Of a DNA stretch of 64,000 nucleotides, positions 38,293-47,067 are shown piece by piece. A program made the position numbers and the translations under genes. Origin of the DNA: an uncultured delta proteobacterium (GTDB lineage Bacteria; Desulfobacterota; Desulfobacteria; Desulfobacterales; B30-G6); NCBI GenBank assembly GCA_963842925.1, contig CAWJIL010000003.1:249542-313541 (forward strand), read 5' to 3'. The notes beneath the pieces were generated by a model. It had not been told where the DNA came from. It worked only from the letters and a program-made list of their open reading frames with translations, and searched no databases. Within the stretch, counting starts at the first letter, position 1, and each line of letters starts with the position of its first letter.

Positions 38293-39174
38293 ATGCCCGT
38301 ATCAGCCAAAAAAGTAAATGGATTCTATTTCATGCCGCCATCACTCAGCGCCTGGATCGGGCAAACCATACCCGACAAGGAATTCGATGGTCAAATCCCC
38401 TGGACACCTCTGAAAAAACCGGTTTCTGAAACCGTTTTTTCTTTGATGACCTCCGCCGGCATCAACATGAAAACTGATCCGGATTTTGACATGCAACGGG
38501 AAAAACAGAAACCCACGTGGGGAGATCCCTCGTACAGAAAAATACCGAAATCAGCTAAGGAAACCGACATCCATATCAATCATCTGCATGTCAACACGGA
38601 TTATATACAACAGGATATGAATGTGACCCTGCCTTTGGAACGCTTTCGGGAATTCGAAAGCGATGGTGTTATCGGCGCGTTGGCCCCCACCACCTATTCC
38701 TACTATGGATATCAAACAGATCCAACCGTTCTGCTGGAAGAAACCATGCCCAAGGTTGTGGCGGCCATGAAATCTGAAGGGGTGGAAGCCGTTTTTCTCA
38801 CCCCGGCCTGACCCTTGTGCTGCCGGTCCGTGGGACTGGTTGCACGGTTTCTTGAAGAAAATGGACTCTCCACCATCCTTCTCACCATGACACCCGAATT
38901 CAACAGGGAAATCGGGATACCCCGTATTGCGGCCATCGAATACCCTTATGGGCGGGTCGTGGGTGAAGTGAACGATGCAGAGGGTCAACGGCAAGTGCTC
39001 ATGGAAGCACTGTCGGTTCTGGATGCCGCAGAAAAACCGGGTGAGGTGGTTCATCTGCCATACACCTGGCATGAAGACCCTAGGGATACAAAATGGCATC
39101 CGCCCGAGGCTTCCCCCATCATCAAAATGTATTTGGAAGCCATAAAGAAAGCCGGATCCGAAGCACGTAAGTAA
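38293..39174 (+). CDS. PrdB/GrdB-family (Stickland reductase selenoprotein B-like) selenoprotein with selenocysteine at UGA 38809-38811
   Basis: ORFs 38293-38811 and 38815-39174 are in the same frame and are separated only by TGA plus one codon. The read-through gives ..EAVFLTPA-U-PLCCRSVGLVARFLEENGLSTILL.., which resembles the ..LLTAG-U-GTCHRS..AGIPTI.. Sec region of PrdB as I recall it. The second ORF has no ATG or RBS of its own. A hairpin follows the UGA. Confidence 0.8.
38817..38845 (+). promoter_or_regulatory. Candidate bacterial SECIS hairpin
   Basis: gtgctgccggtcc-gtg-ggactggttgcac forms a 13-position stem (10 Watson-Crick pairs, 2 G-U pairs, 1 mismatch) starting 6 nt after the UGA. 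Confidence 0.5.
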
Positions 39175-39253
39175 AACGACGCCTAAATCGAATTTTTTTG
39201 TCCACGTCAGAACGTGGAGTCTATGAGAAATATTTAAAAAAAGGAGAAGGGAT

Positions 39254-40264
39254 ATGAAAAGATCAATCCGTTTTATGTTTGTGCTAATTGCAGGATTACT
39301 GCTCTTCTTTATCGCAGGTCCTGCAACGGGAAAAACTGTTGAGTTGAAATTGGCTCACTTTATGCCGGCCATGCATGTTCAGCATGTAAAAGCTTTTGAG
39401 CCTTTTGCAAAGCAGGTTGCAAAAGAATCTGGTGGGGAAGTTACTATAAAAATCTACCCTGGCGGAGCACTTGGCAACCCAAAAACCATGGTAGATGCGA
39501 TTCGTATGGGTATTACAGATATTGGTTTTGTTCTCCCCAGCTATGTACCTGGACGGTTCGAGAGAAGCTCTGTGTTTGAACTGCCATTTATTTTTAACAA
39601 TGCAGAACATGTAACAAGAGTAGTTTATGATATCTATGATGAGTACCTGGCTGAAGACTATAAAGAATTTAAGACGCTCTGGTTTCTTTCCGCCCCTCTG
39701 AGTCAGGTTCATACTACAAAAGCACCTCTTCTGACACTTGCCGATTTTAAAGGTGTGAAAATTAGAGGTGGTAATGCCCTTGAATCAAAAGCGATAAAAC
39801 TTCTCGGTGGCAATCCGGTTGGCCTACCAATTTCAGAACTTTCAATCGCAATGCAAAAAGGTGTTGTTGATGGTTGTTTTACTCCCTATGCGGCGCTTAG
39901 AAGTTATAAACTGATTGATGTTTCTAAATATATTACTGAATTTAATTTTTCTGGTGCTTTAATGTGTGTATTAATGAACAAAGCCAAATGGAATAGCCTT
40001 TCAGATAATGGTAAAAATGCAATTAATGTTGTTGCGACAAAACAATTTGGCATGAGGGCGGCCATGGCTTTTGATGAAGAAGATTCGGAAAACAAGGCCA
40101 TGGCTGCAGAAAAAGGGATGAAATCATATATGCTTTCAGATGTTGACAGAGCCGCTATAAAAGAAAAATTCAGTATATTCTATTCGGATTGGGTAAAAAA
40201 GAACTCATCAAAGTTTGATGCCCAAAAACTTCTTGACGCCGTTTTTGAGTCCGCTGCAAAATAA
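39254..40264 (+). CDS. dctP: TRAP transporter substrate-binding protein (DctP family)
   Basis: A signal peptide followed by ELKLAHFMP, a DctP-type fold pattern. ggagaaggg RBS. Confidence 0.9.
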   Translation: MKRSIRFMFVLIAGLLLFFIAGPATGKTVELKLAHFMPAMHVQHVKAFEPFAKQVAKESGGEVTIKIYPGGALGNPKTMVDAIRMGITDIGFVLPSYVPGRFERSSVFELPFIFNNAEHVTRVVYDIYDEYLAEDYKEFKTLWFLSAPLSQVHTTKAPLLTLADFKGVKIRGGNALESKAIKLLGGNPVGLPISELSIAMQKGVVDGCFTPYAALRSYKLIDVSKYITEFNFSGALMCVLMNKAKWNSLSDNGKNAINVVATKQFGMRAAMAFDEEDSENKAMAAEKGMKSYMLSDVDRAAIKEKFSIFYSDWVKKNSSKFDAQKLLDAVFESAAK

Positions 40265-40372
40265 TAGCAATGTCTCTATTCGCATTAGAAAAAAATCGCT
40301 CCGTTCAAGAGAATATAAAATAGTTTTCGTTTGGAGCTGCCTTGTATTCTCCTCTATTGTAAGGACAAATAA

Positions 40373-40873
40373 ATGGTACAACAAAAGAATCCAATCTGGG
40401 TTGAAAAAGGACTTTATCCCTTGGTCAAAATCCTTGACTATTTATCATGGATAACACTTTTTTCAATGATGGCAATAACTATATTAGATGTTTTTCTAAG
40501 AAAATTATTTAATACATCTATTCTCGGGACAGTTGAGCTTACCGAATTTATGATGGTTATTGTAGTCTTTAGCTCCCTTGCTCAGTGTGAAGTTGACAAT
40601 GGCCACATCAGAGTTGAACTGATCATAGACAAATTCGGACCCAAAGTTAGAACCTGTGCGAATATTTTCACTCAAACGTTATGTACTGCTCTTTTTGCTA
40701 TGATGTCCACATCCATTTATCATCATGCAATAAACATGAAGTCCTCCGGTGAAGTGTCAATGGATCTTGGGCTTCCAATGTATCCATTTGTCTACATTGC
40801 ATTTTTCGGATGCATTGTAATGACTGTAGTTCTGTTTTTTAAAACAATCCTAATAATTTCAAAGGCAGTATAA
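40373..40873 (+). CDS. dctQ: TRAP transporter small permease (DctQ family)
   Basis: 166 aa with 4 TM segments, positioned between the dctP and dctM genes. Confidence 0.85.
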   Translation: MVQQKNPIWVEKGLYPLVKILDYLSWITLFSMMAITILDVFLRKLFNTSILGTVELTEFMMVIVVFSSLAQCEVDNGHIRVELIIDKFGPKVRTCANIFTQTLCTALFAMMSTSIYHHAINMKSSGEVSMDLGLPMYPFVYIAFFGCIVMTVVLFFKTILIISKAV

Positions 40874-40875
40874 TC

Positions 40876-42180
40876 ATGAGCCCCTTAGTTATAGGCGTGT
40901 TAGGGATAGGAGCTCTGTTTATTCTTCTGGCTTTAAGAATGCAAATTGGCTTTGCAATGGCTATTATTGGATTTGCCGGGTTTGCAATCTTAAATAGTTT
41001 CAGCTCAAGCCTTGCCATCCTTGGCTTTGAGCCTTATCAAACAGCATCTTCATACACCCTAAGTGTCATTCCATTATTTATGCTTATGGGACAATTTGCC
41101 AACCATTCCAATTTGGGCACGGAAATATATGAAACTGTCAACAAATGGATTGGGTTTTTGCCAGGGGGGCTTGCCATGGCAACGGTCGGGGCATGTGCCA
41201 TGTTTGCGGCGATCTCCGGTTCATCTCTTGCCACTGCTGCAATGTTCGGAACAATCGCACTTCCTGAAATGCAAAAACTGGACTATTCTGAAAAACTTGC
41301 AACAGGATGTATTGCTGCCGGTGGGACATTGGGTATTTTAATCCCCCCAAGTTCCGTACTGATTCTCTACGGTATTCTTACTGAACAAAGTATAGGAAGA
41401 CTCTTTATTGCAGGCATAATACCTGGAATATTACTAAGCTTGATGTTTATAGGTACAATATATGTCCTGACCAAAATAAATCCCAGCATAGGAAAACCTG
41501 GTCCCGCATATGCATTTAAACAAAAAGTTGCTTCCTTAAAAAACACATGGGCAATAATTACTCTATTTGGTCTTGTTATTGGTGGACTGTATGCTGGTTG
41601 GTTTACACCAACAGCTGCTGCCGGAGTTGGCGCATTTGGTGCATTTTTAATAACCCTGCTCAAACGCAGGCTGACATGGAATACCTTAATAATCTCATTA
41701 AAAGAAGCAGCCTCGTCTACGGCAATGATTTTCGGAATTTTAATAGGAGCAATGATTTTTCAGTATTTTATGACATTGAGCCAGATACCGACAACTTTAG
41801 CATCACTGGTGGTTGACTCCGGGATGGGAAAGTATCTTGTTATTAGTTGCATAATAATAGGATTCATCATTTTGGGTTGTTTTATGGAAGGTCTTTCCAT
41901 AATGGTCCTGGCAGTGCCAATTATTTTCCCTATTATCATAAATATGGGTTTTGATCCTATCTGGTTTGGAATTATCATTACGTTGACCATGGAAATGAGC
42001 CTTATCACACCACCTGTTGGCGTGAATGTTTTTGTTTTAAGCGGTGTTGCCAAGGATATACCCATGTCGACAATGTTTAAAGGAATTTTACCTTTCTGGA
42101 TTGCCATGCTGATTTGTATTATTCTTCTTGCTTGCTTTCCTGAAATAGTAACATATTTACCGAATAGAATGATGGGATAG
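40876..42180 (+). CDS. dctM: TRAP transporter large permease (DctM family)
   Basis: A 434-aa polytopic protein with DctM-typical motifs (AISGSSLATAA, LIPPS). Confidence 0.92.
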   Translation: MSPLVIGVLGIGALFILLALRMQIGFAMAIIGFAGFAILNSFSSSLAILGFEPYQTASSYTLSVIPLFMLMGQFANHSNLGTEIYETVNKWIGFLPGGLAMATVGACAMFAAISGSSLATAAMFGTIALPEMQKLDYSEKLATGCIAAGGTLGILIPPSSVLILYGILTEQSIGRLFIAGIIPGILLSLMFIGTIYVLTKINPSIGKPGPAYAFKQKVASLKNTWAIITLFGLVIGGLYAGWFTPTAAAGVGAFGAFLITLLKRRLTWNTLIISLKEAASSTAMIFGILIGAMIFQYFMTLSQIPTTLASLVVDSGMGKYLVISCIIIGFIILGCFMEGLSIMVLAVPIIFPIIINMGFDPIWFGIIITLTMEMSLITPPVGVNVFVLSGVAKDIPMSTMFKGILPFWIAMLICIILLACFPEIVTYLPNRMMG

Positions 42181-42186
42181 TCTTAA

Positions 42187-43584
42187 ATGGATGTTGTAAC
42201 TAAATTATTACTTATTGCTGATATTTTTTTATTTTCCGCTTTCTTATATTTTGCATTTGAGTCTTACCGTGAGCAAGAAGCACGCGCCACGAAAATCGGT
42301 CTCGTGGGTGCAGCAATCGCCATAATCATCGGAATTTTTATATTTATCCCAGACCTAAAAAATGCAGTCGTATACCTTTTCTCCACAGGATGCATACTTT
42401 CCCTAAGCCTGCTGATTCCAGCCAACCCGAATAAAAAGGCCCTGAAAGGAACAAAGGGTTATCTTGTGGGCCAGGCACAGCGATTTGACGAAAGGAATTC
42501 TGTTTTTGCAAGGTATAGGAGTTTGACCCCGGGAACCGAGCGCTATGATTATTTTTATAGGAAGATGCATCCTGAAAAAGAAGAACACGATGCAAAAAGA
42601 CGAAAAACAGGTTTTATTGGTACCAATGGAAGTATCGACAATGGATATCAACCCAATGTTGCCATGATGCATGCTTCTTTTTCAATACCGCCCTATCTGG
42701 GCCATTATGCATTTAATGATCCTGAATCTGATGTTCCTGCTGCAAACTTAAGCCCTGAAAAAGCGACCCTGATTGTTAAAAACCTTGCCAGACATATTGG
42801 CGCTGATCTGGTAGGAATCACAAAGGTTGATACGGATCTTCTTTATTCACATAGAGGGGAAATCCATTATGACAACGAAAAAGACTGGGGCAAAGAAATA
42901 AAAGACCTACCGCCGTATGCTGTGGTTCTTATCACGCAAATGAGCCACGGTCATGTCATATCAGCTCCGCATACGCCAACGGTGGCCGAGAGTGCCCACC
43001 TTTATGCAAAAGGCGCCTATATGGCGACCTTGCTTGCCAGATGGTTTTCATACATGGGGTATAAAGGTATTGCTGAACACACACGTAACTATAATCTTGT
43101 GTTGCCACCTCTTGCAGTTGATGCAGGGCTCGGAGAAGTTGGTCGTCAAGGCTACCTGATTGCGCCCAAGTTTGGAGCAAGGGTCCGTATTTTTGCAGTA
43201 TTAACCGATATGCCTCTTTTAACTGACAAGCCTATTTCCCTCGGTGTTGAGGAATTCTGTCAGGCTTGTAAAAAATGCGCTGATGCCTGCCCTTCAAAAT
43301 CAATACCCCAGGGCGCTAAAACTGTCTACAACGGCTTTGAAAAATGGAAGCTTGATGAAGATTCCTGCTTTGCGTACTGGAGTAAAGTGGGTACTGATTG
43401 CTCAATCTGTATGGCTATCTGCCCTTTTAGCCGACCAGATACGTTTTTACATAAAATTGTAAAGCTGCTTGTTGCCAAATCAAGGATTGCACAAATAACA
43501 TTCCCCTATATTGACAATTTCTTGTATGGTAAACATTGGCGGTCCAAAACGGTTCTACCATGGTTAAATTACAACGATAAATAA
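42187..43584 (+). CDS. Reductive-dehalogenase-like (RdhA/QueG superfamily) Fe-S protein with N-terminal transmembrane anchor
   Basis: It has about three N-terminal hydrophobic helices and no RRxFLK twin-arginine motif. The C-terminal region carries CQACKKCADACP and C..W....DCSICMAICP (2x[4Fe-4S]). It starts 6 nt after dctM. Confidence 0.72.
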   Translation: MDVVTKLLLIADIFLFSAFLYFAFESYREQEARATKIGLVGAAIAIIIGIFIFIPDLKNAVVYLFSTGCILSLSLLIPANPNKKALKGTKGYLVGQAQRFDERNSVFARYRSLTPGTERYDYFYRKMHPEKEEHDAKRRKTGFIGTNGSIDNGYQPNVAMMHASFSIPPYLGHYAFNDPESDVPAANLSPEKATLIVKNLARHIGADLVGITKVDTDLLYSHRGEIHYDNEKDWGKEIKDLPPYAVVLITQMSHGHVISAPHTPTVAESAHLYAKGAYMATLLARWFSYMGYKGIAEHTRNYNLVLPPLAVDAGLGEVGRQGYLIAPKFGARVRIFAVLTDMPLLTDKPISLGVEEFCQACKKCADACPSKSIPQGAKTVYNGFEKWKLDEDSCFAYWSKVGTDCSICMAICPFSRPDTFLHKIVKLLVAKSRIAQITFPYIDNFLYGKHWRSKTVLPWLNYNDK

Positions 43585-43705
43585 CATAAAACCGGGACCG
43601 GGAGACGTAAATAATTTTTCATTTTAAATCGATTGTGCTATGTAGAATCGATCCATAATAGTGTATGTTTTTGCCACCCCAATCAAGATTGAGATAGGAG
43701 CCTGT

Positions 43706-45465: not shown

Positions 45466-47067
45466 TCAAATTACCCCATCCCTGTTTTCCGGCACAGGAA
45501 TATCTTCTGAATAGCTCACCACCTGATTCCGCCCGTTTTCCTTGGCTGCATACAAAGCCGCATCGGCCCGTTGCAGCAAGTCATCAATGTTCTTGCCATC
45601 ATCAGGAAACGTTGCGATACCCAGACTGATGGTCACCGGCGGCAGGTTGCCGACTTTGATTTCGGAGACACCCTTGCGTATACGGTCAGCTAGAATAAAA
45701 GCGGCTTCTTTGACGGTTTCGGGAAGAAACATGATAAATTCTTCGCCGCCGTATCGGCCGACACTGTCCACGTCTCGAACGCTTTTCTGCAGAAAGACGC
45801 CAACGGCTTTCAACACTTTGTCACCGGCAGTATGCCCGTATGAGTCATTCACGGTCTTAAACTGATCCAGATCTCCCATGACCAAAGACAAACTTTTTTT
45901 ATACCGTTGGGTACGGTGGATTTCATCCTGAAGCTTGGCCATGAAATAGCGCCTCACATGCAGACCGGTCAATGAGTCATTGATGGCCATTTCCCACAAT
46001 TGCGCCTTACTGATTGAGATCGCTGCCTGGTCTGCCACCGCACCCAGCATCTCGATATCCTCATCCGTAAAACCATCTCCGATCTTCTTGTTGGTGACAT
46101 TGATAACACCAATGATGTCATCGTACACTTTCATTGGAATGCAGGCAATGGAGTTAGCAAAAGATGCATTGCCCCCGATAAACCTTTTGTCTTCAACTGT
46201 TTTGTTGATAAAGGTCGGTTCCCCTGTTTGAAACACGGTTCCGGCTACACCTTCTCCCGGCTCGAAGGTTTTGCATTTGATTTCATTGTTGTTGACTTTC
46301 TGCTGATACTCTTTGTCTCGCAGGCCTGCCAGTACGCGAACGCTCAACTGGTTCGTATCCGGGTCGTGAAGCATGATGGAACCCTTTTCGGCAACAGTCA
46401 CCTCTATAGCCTGGTTCAGTATGTACTTTAAAAGGCTCTTGAGGTCGCTGATATAGGTCATGGCCCGTCCGATATTATAAAGGAGAGAAAGGTTGTTAAG
46501 GGTCTTGTCCAGATCCTCCTTTTCCTTCTTATGTCGTTCATACAGGAGGCAACTGTTGATGGAGGCCGCCGCATGCATGCAGATACGTGTCAAAAAATCG
46601 AGACAAAATTCATTTTTTGAAATCTCGGTCAGAGATTTGTTCAAGGCCATCAGACCGATGACATTCTCCTTCATGTTCAACAAGGCCCACGTTACCGATT
46701 CCAGGCTTTTCGGTTTCTTCTCTCTGAAAAACGACTTCACTTCAGGCATGTCATAAAAAACTTCCATGGGTTGAAAGTCCTTTTGGCGCAACCTGGACAA
46801 AAAACCATTCCCACTCTTGAGTTCATTTTTCCAAATTTTGAATCCCTGATTGTAGACAAGGCTAAAGCTGTTGATCTCTTGATTGAAATTGAAAATAGCA
46901 ATGGCGTCGGTACCCAGTTTTCTGCTGATAATATCAGCAAAAGTTCCATATAATTCATCTGAACACCGGGTGTCGCTCAACTGATGTACGGCATCCAGAA
47001 GTTCACTCAGCTCTTTAATATGGGAATGCATGCTGTCTTGAGACTTGCTGTTGGCTTTGTCTGTCAT
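45466..47067 (-). CDS. Diguanylate cyclase with N-terminal GAF-type sensory domains
   Basis: GGEEF active site (RYGGEEFIMFL) and a GAF-like region (..GEGVAGTVFQTGEP..). Confidence 0.88.
   Translation of the reverse strand: MTDKANSKSQDSMHSHIKELSELLDAVHQLSDTRCSDELYGTFADIISRKLGTDAIAIFNFNQEINSFSLVYNQGFKIWKNELKSGNGFLSRLRQKDFQPMEVFYDMPEVKSFFREKKPKSLESVTWALLNMKENVIGLMALNKSLTEISKNEFCLDFLTRICMHAAASINSCLLYERHKKEKEDLDKTLNNLSLLYNIGRAMTYISDLKSLLKYILNQAIEVTVAEKGSIMLHDPDTNQLSVRVLAGLRDKEYQQKVNNNEIKCKTFEPGEGVAGTVFQTGEPTFINKTVEDKRFIGGNASFANSIACIPMKVYDDIIGVINVTNKKIGDGFTDEDIEMLGAVADQAAISISKAQLWEMAINDSLTGLHVRRYFMAKLQDEIHRTQRYKKSLSLVMGDLDQFKTVNDSYGHTAGDKVLKAVGVFLQKSVRDVDSVGRYGGEEFIMFLPETVKEAAFILADRIRKGVSEIKVGNLPPVTISLGIATFPDDGKNIDDLLQRADAALYAAKENGRNQVVSYSEDIPVPENRDGVI

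Follow-up and report, generated by a model that had tools for sequence, protein, structure and literature searches.

A transmembrane reductive dehalogenase homologue encoded with a TRAP importer in a Desulfobacterales genome

Introduction

What would a reductive dehalogenase homologue do if it carries its own membrane helices, has no export signal and is encoded directly behind an importer? This question is raised by the rdhA gene at positions 42187..43584 (plus strand) of a 64,000-nucleotide stretch of DNA, here called the window, from an uncultured delta proteobacterium of the Desulfobacterales lineage B30-G6 (GCA_963842925.1, contig CAWJIL010000003.1, positions 249,542 to 313,541). The genes preceding rdhA, dctP, dctQ and dctM, encode a tripartite ATP-independent periplasmic (TRAP) transporter. 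An earlier reading of the bare sequence (the original prediction) took the 465-aa product, called RdhA below, for a cytoplasm-facing catabolic enzyme acting on the imported substrate. The importer genes and rdhA were found to be linked in many other genomes and to have been inserted into this one as a block. With slightly better than even confidence, we lean towards an inward-facing cobamide reductase that would act on an imported, probably halogenated, aromatic acid.

RdhA is a member of the reductive dehalogenase family

The predicted protein scores 195 bits against the NCBIfam reductive dehalogenase model TIGR02486 (cut-off 160.35) and fails the model of the epoxyqueuosine reductase QueG (TIGR00276: 41.8 bits, cut-off 200). 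In the PDB its sequence matches Sulfurospirillum PceA (SmPceA, E = 2.8e-40), NpRdhA (E = 8.6e-39) and the Desulfitobacterium PceA of the PceA2B2 complex (DhPceA, E = 1.3e-37), with QueG at E = 4.5e-7. An AlphaFold2 model built on 67 homologues (mean predicted local distance difference test score, pLDDT, 94.1; predicted template modelling score 0.92) was ranked by Foldseek closest to 8q4h_A (E = 2.3e-21), then to SmPceA and NpRdhA (about 2e-19), with QueG at about 1e-6. Because the sequence and fold matches to QueG are some 15 orders of magnitude weaker than those to PceA, NpRdhA and DhPceA, the protein is assigned to the RdhA type and not to QueG. A clustering with QueG would have refuted the original prediction; the profile, PDB and Foldseek results favour PceA and NpRdhA instead. 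Neither Pfam nor NCBIfam detected domains beyond those of the family.

The core ends, as originally proposed, in two iron-sulfur motifs. The first, a [4Fe-4S] motif CxxCxxCxxxCP (C358-QA-C361-KK-C364-ADA-C368-P369), lies at 43258..43293 and is also recognised by Pfam Fer4_7; the second, CxxCxxxCP (C405-SI-C408-MAI-C412-P413), lies at 43399..43425, with Cys394 upstream of it. All motif cysteines are invariant across the homologue alignments. HMMER alignments to PDB chains identify Tyr273 (43003..43005) as the counterpart of the catalytic tyrosine (SmPceA Y246, NpRdhA Y426, DhPceA Y337) and Arg334 (43186..43188) as that of SmPceA R305, NpRdhA K488 and DhPceA R396, and both residues are invariant in an alignment of 141 family members. 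From its fold match to corrinoid-containing RdhAs, the product would be a cobamide- and iron-sulfur-dependent reductive dehalogenase homologue. In the same kind of alignment His422 falls on DhPceA His495, which lies closest to the menaquinone head group (PMC10624902). When the last 61 aa were searched separately, the alignment still stopped short of DhPceA D515 and Y520. H422, D443 and Y447 were considered together as a diagnostic quinone-site signature, which was rejected because the three residues are also present in two cytosolic paralogues (L042 and L043, described below).

Proteins of this architecture form a described class. rdhA genes with membrane helices were first noted by Jochum 2018 (PMC6129605), and Atashgahi 2019 listed about 70 "hybrid" RdhAs, which have three helices at the N-terminus with an EXE motif between the first two and lack both a twin-arginine translocation (Tat) signal and rdhB, and posed the question of a catabolic, fermentative or respiratory role (PMC6797604). 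A resemblance to PceA2B2 was suggested by Cimmino 2023 (PMC10624902). Han 2025 labels the class "transmembrane respiratory RdhA" and reports it as the largest cold-seep group, with 1963 of 3993 sequences and 33 phyla (PMC12219181). The view of the original prediction that the architecture is nearly unknown was thus mistaken (PMC6129605, PMC6797604, PMC12219181), although it is true that no member has been assayed.

Over its full length the window RdhA is 50-54% identical to the NaphS2 and Dethiosulfatarculus sandiegensis proteins, with which it forms one family in trees, and more than 1483 homologues were found among 8000 candidates scored. The hybrid RdhAs of NaphS2, D. sandiegensis and Desulfatiglans SAG2 likewise have three helices, an EXE loop and two iron-sulfur motifs, and lack Tat signal and rdhB. 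On these sequence comparisons the window protein belongs to the known, biochemically uncharacterised hybrid or transmembrane class. However, no transporter is encoded next to rdhA in NaphS2 or D. sandiegensis, and the window RdhA falls in a separate dctPQM-rdhA-gntR subclade (Shimodaira-Hasegawa-like approximate likelihood ratio test, SH-aLRT, 93-99).

Linkage of rdhA to importer genes is conserved

All three subunits of the TRAP importer are encoded upstream of rdhA on the plus strand. These are dctP (39254..40264), for a periplasmic solute-binding protein of 336 aa (Pfam DctP, E = 3e-53), dctQ (40373..40873), for the small membrane subunit of 166 aa (Pfam DctQ, E = 8e-27), and dctM (40876..42180), for the large permease subunit of 434 aa (Pfam DctM, E = 3e-95; TIGR00786, 333.6 bits, cut-off 268). 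The model NF037995 also scored above its cut-off in these genes. The last letter of the dctM stop codon is at 42180, and rdhA begins with an ATG at 42187. The 6-nt gap from which the original prediction had argued for a coupling to the importer is therefore real, but the evolutionary conservation of the linkage is far stronger evidence than the gap alone.

In six of six metagenomic homologues (58-80% identity), found in at least four different surroundings, dctP-dctQ-dctM lie directly upstream of rdhA on the same strand, and in three of the six a GntR/FCD regulator gene lies directly downstream. Among species-representative genomes, dctM was found directly upstream of rdhA in 18 of 80 loci, 12-117 nt apart. 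A maximum-likelihood tree placed all 24 TRAP-linked proteins in a single clade of 35 (SH-aLRT 99), and none of the other 57 proteins, those of NaphS2 and D. sandiegensis included, showed the linkage.

A combined tree of 162 proteins, to which 80 metagenome loci had been added, was divided into three clades. Clade A, which contains the window protein, comprises 43 rows, of which 30 are TRAP-linked (importer upstream), one is linked to a tripartite tricarboxylate transporter (TTT), three are unlinked and nine uninformative. In nearly all linked members of this clade dctPQM immediately precede rdhA on the same strand, with 11-117 nt in between. Clade B has the order rdhA-dctPQM, sometimes with gntR upstream; of its 39 rows, eight are TRAP-linked (downstream), one is TTT-linked, seven are unlinked and 23 uninformative. 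Clade C, the NaphS2 group, has two TRAP-linked rows (upstream) and two TTT-linked rows among 59, with 30 unlinked and 25 uninformative. Overall, an importer of either type accompanies rdhA in 45 of 97 informative loci. The TTT-linked member of an uncultured Desulfobacula (L051, 68% identical) has tctC-tctB-tctA in place of dctPQM and retains gntR; here one carboxylate importer was swapped for a non-orthologous one.

Within clade A, the identity of each RdhA to the window protein tracks that of DctM and DctP (r = 0.92, 23 loci), which indicates that the genes travel together. Only eight DctM-like matches were found in the host genome (assembly of 4.9 Mb, 96.9% complete), so that a chance adjacency of dctM and rdhA is negligible. 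The unlinked family members share no neighbour family of their own, the commonest being present in 4 of 98.

Two further arrangements were noted. In a same-genus genome (G007, contig 21; L042:8692-9858) a cytosolic RdhA of 388 aa, 33% identical, is encoded directly after dctQ-dctM on the same strand. This adds a distant example of linkage between TRAP and rdhA genes; the match carries one internal TAA. In a clade A locus of a Desulfosarcinaceae metagenome-assembled genome (L120:2909-7921), rdhA follows genes for Nuo/Mrp-type antiporter-like subunits and not a transporter, which might hint at how the enzyme is coupled to electron or ion flow.

The link between importer and rdhA was not found in the titles and abstracts of the searchable literature. 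The main text of Han 2025 mentions GntR neighbours and does not contain the word "transporter"; its supplementary neighbour table could hold a TRAP entry (PMC12219181). Relative to the searchable literature, the conserved mobile cassette of importer, reductase and regulator, the clue to an aromatic acid and the insertion described below are additions.

The binding protein points to an aromatic carboxylic acid

The structural model of the window DctP (pLDDT 88.7) was compared with known structures using Foldseek. The top 27 matches form one block of TRAP receptors (E = 3e-30 to 7e-27), and the class that follows begins about three orders of magnitude weaker. The best PDB sequence matches of DctP fall in the same block. 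Most of the receptor titles name aromatic carboxylates: a marine-metagenome protein (5i7i/5iga) is described as "specific for aromatic acid ligands", and the TarP entries name ferulate, coumarate, caffeate, cinnamate or 4-hydroxyphenylacetate. For Dde_0634, the Bordetella bronchiseptica protein 4p56, Desal_3247 and Rfer_2570, which are also in the block, no ligand is legible in the titles; two of these four presumably bind aromatic ligands as well. The aromatic-acid receptors (TarP family, 5i7i/5iga, Dde_0634) are 23-32% identical to the window DctP and share its fold. For none of these receptors is a pairing with a dehalogenase known, whereas the window DctP gene adjoins rdhA.

Carboxylates are the speciality of DctP-type TRAP systems and of TTT systems alike. 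Together with the receptor grouping, this makes an aromatic carboxylic acid the most likely imported compound. Judging from the enzyme family, the acid is probably halogenated, by analogy with the substrates of NpRdhA. NpRdhA (4ras, 6zy1) and BhbA, whose similarity to the window protein is at a level comparable to that of PceA, also lack Tat signal and RdhB and act intracellularly, on brominated hydroxybenzoic acids (the title of 6zy1 names 3-bromo-4-hydroxybenzoate). NpRdhA, however, is soluble and NAD(P)H-linked, is about 700 aa long and contains a duplicated vestigial cobalamin-binding domain, while the window RdhA, at 465 aa, is anchored and has no such domains. A reported precedent for a halogenated aromatic acid that has to enter the cell to be dehalogenated is Desulfomonile tiedjei, which dehalorespires 3-chlorobenzoate. 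For the uptake of a halobenzoate by a TRAP transporter the precedent is the fcb system, which takes up 4-chlorobenzoate and feeds a hydrolytic and not a reductive dehalogenase. A comparison of clades A and C yielded 13 specificity positions, with no evident carboxylate-binding residue among them.

Upstream of dctP, related cassettes carry a TTGACA-type promoter and, behind it, a ATAGGTCAGACCTAT-type palindrome. The palindrome is single in most members and double in L047 and L050. Its resemblance to FadR/GntR operators fits a candidate operator for the product of the adjacent GntR/FCD gene.

The membrane domain is predicted to hold the catalytic domain inside

Hydropathy detects three hydrophobic segments within the first 78 residues of RdhA and none further on. 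In the AlphaFold2 model these correspond to helices at residues 3-28, 32-51 and 55-74 (42193..42408). No Tat motif RRxFxK was found in the protein: the N-terminus reads MDVVTKLLLI..., and the sole RR, at residues 138-139, lies in the soluble part. No open reading frame of 40-160 aa with at least two hydrophobic segments, as expected of an rdhB-like gene, occurs between 36 and 47 kb of the window. The helices, the missing twin-arginine signal and the missing rdhB had all been anticipated by the original prediction, as had the side of the membrane considered next.

Loop 1 and the first 15 residues past helix 3 contain a mean of 6.4 Lys and Arg residues, compared with 1.07 for the N-terminus and loop 2, and the former count exceeds the latter in 67 of 67 homologues (45-80% identity). 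The predicted topology therefore has the N-terminus outside and the catalytic domain in the cytoplasm. Such an orientation also fits the lack of a route for exporting a folded domain with cobamide and iron-sulfur clusters when there is no Tat signal.

The loop between helices 1 and 2, E29-Q-E31-A-R33 (42271..42285), combines the EXE motif with an arginine and is predicted to face the cytoplasm. This ExExR loop is invariant or nearly so in both homologue alignments and in clades A, B and C, and a D101-E-R103 motif sits just past the membrane domain. The loop, the D101-E-R103 motif and the strictly conserved three-helix domain suggest that the membrane part does more than anchor the protein, most plausibly that it takes in electrons from quinol.

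The best structural match, PceA2B2 of Desulfitobacterium hafniense (8q4h), shares the catalytic Tyr and Arg with the window RdhA, but its PceA is Tat-exported, faces outward and has a separate anchor, PceB, whereas the window RdhA is self-anchored and predicted to face inward. The PceB glutamate pair lies in the loop of helices 2-3, on the outer side beside PceA (PMC10624902), and that of the window RdhA between helices 1 and 2. In both, the pair would be on the same side of the membrane as the catalytic domain, predicted to be the inner side for the window protein. PceA acts on an uncharged chloroethene, for which an importer is not needed, and the window RdhA is paired with one.

The cassette was recently inserted into this genome

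The four genes form an inserted block of 4431 bp (39175..43605, plus strand) which is absent at the orthologous site of two same-genus genomes, G005 and G006. At this empty site, a PrdB-like gene (95% and 90% identical to that of the window) is followed by about 90 nt, a CBS gene and then the same downstream genes. Homology of the flanks ends at 39174 and resumes at 43606, and the two flank alignments share 9 nt, the one CGTAAATAA present at the empty site. The block is accordingly bounded by 9-nt direct repeats, CGTAAGTAA on the left (39166..39174), which takes in the final codons of the PrdB-like gene with its stop, and CGTAAATAA on the right (43606..43614). Neither a transposase gene nor a terminal inverted repeat was seen at the insert.

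GC content at third codon positions is 0.31 in dctP, 0.34 in dctQ, 0.35 in dctM and 0.38 in rdhA, compared with a mean of 0.543 (sd 0.058) for the long open reading frames of the genome. This places dctP, dctM and rdhA at percentiles of 0.2-1.5%, and the genes on either side have normal values. No rdhA ortholog was found in nine same-genus genomes, the best match being 45% identical. DNA homology to the cassettes of the closest relatives (L001, L044) covers 39222..43591 (plus strand), from 32 nt before the dctP ATG to 7 nt past the rdhA stop. In these relatives the GC content of the cassette (0.37-0.39) matches that of their flanks, which points to a low-GC donor lineage. The four-gene block is thus a recent insertion, and its source is likely a low-GC lineage of sulfate-reducer relatives. 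The original prediction had not recognised it as foreign DNA that lacks a promoter and regulator of its own. A single ancestral BKACE-PanE-PrdB-TRAP-RdhA module was considered and rejected, as only dctPQM-rdhA is conserved elsewhere and the block was inserted beside native genes.

Several other features of the site were recorded. Neither the relatives' cassette nor the empty site has a counterpart of the insert's 47-nt leader (39175-39221), which holds a perfect hairpin, TCCACG-TCAGAA-CGTGGA (39201-39218), preceded by a T run. The PrdB-like gene upstream (38293-39174) encodes a selenoprotein with an in-frame TGA (U173, TPAUPLCC). Its orthologs in seven of the nine same-genus genomes (74-95% identity) each have exactly one in-frame TGA, and a paralogue match (G000:C3:385156-385905, 34% identical) has a TGA plus one TAA. 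A second local presence/absence difference concerns window positions 45466-47067, where a GGDEF/GAF gene between the DDAH-like and dihydropyrimidinase genes is unmatched in G005 (L217).

Cofactor and pathway markers in the host

The host genome, in which CobS and CbiD were not detected, contains one cobalamin riboswitch (C5:256240-256466) and at least 15 proteins with B12-binding domains, and the host probably scavenges cobamides. Oah and Had, markers of benzoyl-CoA ring cleavage, were not found above cut-offs in the genome, which argues against an aromatic product serving as carbon source in this host. Of the menaquinone markers, only MenA scored above its cut-off. A cassette-type GntR was not found in the genome. 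A second RdhA is encoded on contig 15 at about 39780-40980 (L043:8763-9965, minus strand); this 400-aa protein (TIGR02486, 170 bits) has neither membrane helices nor a Tat motif and is of the cytosolic type.

Discussion

Membrane-anchored quinol:fumarate reductase has a cytoplasmic active site, and its carboxylate acceptor must be imported, which is the task of a C4-dicarboxylate carrier. The inward-facing cobamide reductase that we modestly favour would follow a similar logic. Its substrate, most likely a halogenated aromatic carboxylic acid such as one of the halogenated hydroxybenzoate, hydroxyphenylacetate or cinnamate type, would be barred from the enzyme while outside and would be brought in by the co-inherited DctPQM. 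Electrons would probably enter from the membrane, most likely from quinol, and pass via the two iron-sulfur clusters to the corrinoid, and the Tyr273/Arg334 pair would complete the removal of halide. By analogy, the system would be an importer-dependent electron sink or a detoxification device. If quinol were oxidised on the inner side, RdhA itself would build no proton gradient, and energy would be conserved on the donor side. Quinol:fumarate reductase is a functional analogue only, as the proteins and cofactors are unrelated and the dependence of the window RdhA on quinol is itself a deduction. In this host, activity would depend on scavenged cobamide, and expression would need read-through from the PrdB-like gene or a new promoter because the insertion lacks the cassette's promoter, operator and GntR regulator. 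The comparisons establish the family, fold and motifs of RdhA, the conserved gene order, the insertion and the subgroup of the binding protein, while topology, substrate class, electron donor, physiological role and expression are deduced.

Several observations weigh against this reading. Dehalogenation has been demonstrated for no member of the class (PMC6797604, PMC10624902, PMC12090745). The orientation is a prediction, and TMHMM gave mixed orientations across the family, with an exoplasmic C-terminus for about half (PMC6797604); the sequences analysed here suggest that the mixed calls are predictor noise. The N-terminal 182 aa of RdhA had no match to PceB in the PDB up to E = 10, although short membrane proteins may diverge past detection, so that a literal RdhB-RdhA fusion, the proposed origin of the hybrid class, is not demonstrated. 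H422, D443 and Y447, which align or may align with PceA quinone-site residues, are conserved in the cytosolic paralogues and are no proof of a quinol site. In the host genome CobS and CbiD were not detected; of the menaquinone head-group markers, MenD, MenB and MqnC were below their cut-offs and MqnA had no match. Finally, the relatives' promoter, GntR operator and gntR lie outside the transferred stretch 39222-43591 and are missing here.

The catabolic role named by the original prediction would have the halogen removed from the imported aromatic acid so that the product serves as carbon source, with a soluble electron source (ferredoxin, or NAD(P)H via a partner) and the helices as a mere anchor. 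The cytoplasmic orientation and the importer coupling suit it, the GntR/FCD regulator is typical of organic-acid catabolic operons, and the nearest relatives are uncultured Desulfobacula and Desulfobacteraceae, a group which includes degraders of aromatic compounds. However, the cassette never occurs with catabolic genes and its flanks vary between genomes, Oah and Had are not above cut-offs in the host, and a reductase module of the kind found in NpRdhA and BhbA is neither fused to RdhA nor encoded beside it. The membrane domain and ExExR loop, invariant over very deep divergence, go beyond the needs of an anchor and suggest electrons from the membrane. A catabolic rather than respiratory role, as originally claimed, is therefore not established, and we regard it as unlikely. 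It is similarly improbable that the protein is no dehalogenase at all and that a cobamide/iron-sulfur reductase of the RdhA-QueG superfamily carries out some other reduction of an imported, non-halogenated aromatic acid. Such chemistry would agree with the lack of a known activity in the class, with QueG as proof that the fold is capable of non-halide reactions and with the ordinary lignin-type acids taken by the closest characterised binding proteins. In pristine anoxic sediments the class also outranks every other RdhA-like group in abundance and spread (PMC12219181). Yet the protein scores above the curated reductive dehalogenase cut-off, is far nearer to the solved dehalogenases than to QueG, and keeps the halide-elimination Tyr and Arg pair of all three solved dehalogenases.

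An outward-facing respiratory dehalogenase, with the neighbouring transporter serving another purpose, would be in line with the TMHMM calls for about half of the family (PMC6797604) and with the term "respiratory" given to the class in the cold-seep survey (PMC12219181). It is very unlikely, given that there is no Tat motif and no known export route for the folded domain, that the positive-inside rule is uniform in all 67 homologues, and that the transporter linkage is repeated and survives both shuffling of the gene order and non-orthologous replacement. A different kind of alternative, compatible with any biochemical reading, is that the recent insertion is silent cargo, not expressed or not active in this host. 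The missing cassette promoter, operator and gntR, the host's lack of CobS and CbiD and the failure to find an ortholog in nine congeners would be expected of such cargo, but all four reading frames are intact and full-length relative to relatives, and the ribosome-binding region is kept. In addition, 79 nt separate the block from a same-strand gene upstream, a scan found no terminator-like site at that junction, and the riboswitch and the B12-binding-domain proteins imply that the host handles cobamides. We consider silence of the cassette to be quite improbable.

The recurring pairing with an importer is the first concrete clue to the substrate of the enzyme. With the binding protein of the aromatic-acid subgroup and the GntR operator, it narrows the question of substrate, orientation and role to a short list of experiments. 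For this clade, environmental surveys may err in applying the label "respiratory, periplasmic" and in docking against chlorobenzenes or chloroethenes. Transmembrane RdhA homologues are reported to be the most numerous RdhA-like genes in cold-seep sediments, in dozens of phyla (PMC12219181). It is possible, though still doubtful, that a large part of this family consists of inward-facing, membrane-fed reductases for natural aromatic carboxylic acids, halogenated or not, delivered by TRAP or TTT importers, and not of outward respiratory enzymes for hydrophobic pollutants. As the insertion shows, the module is passed between lineages as a whole. If the wider proposal is true, a fumarate-reductase-like use of acceptors would be moving between sediment bacteria as a self-contained cassette of importer, reductase and regulator.

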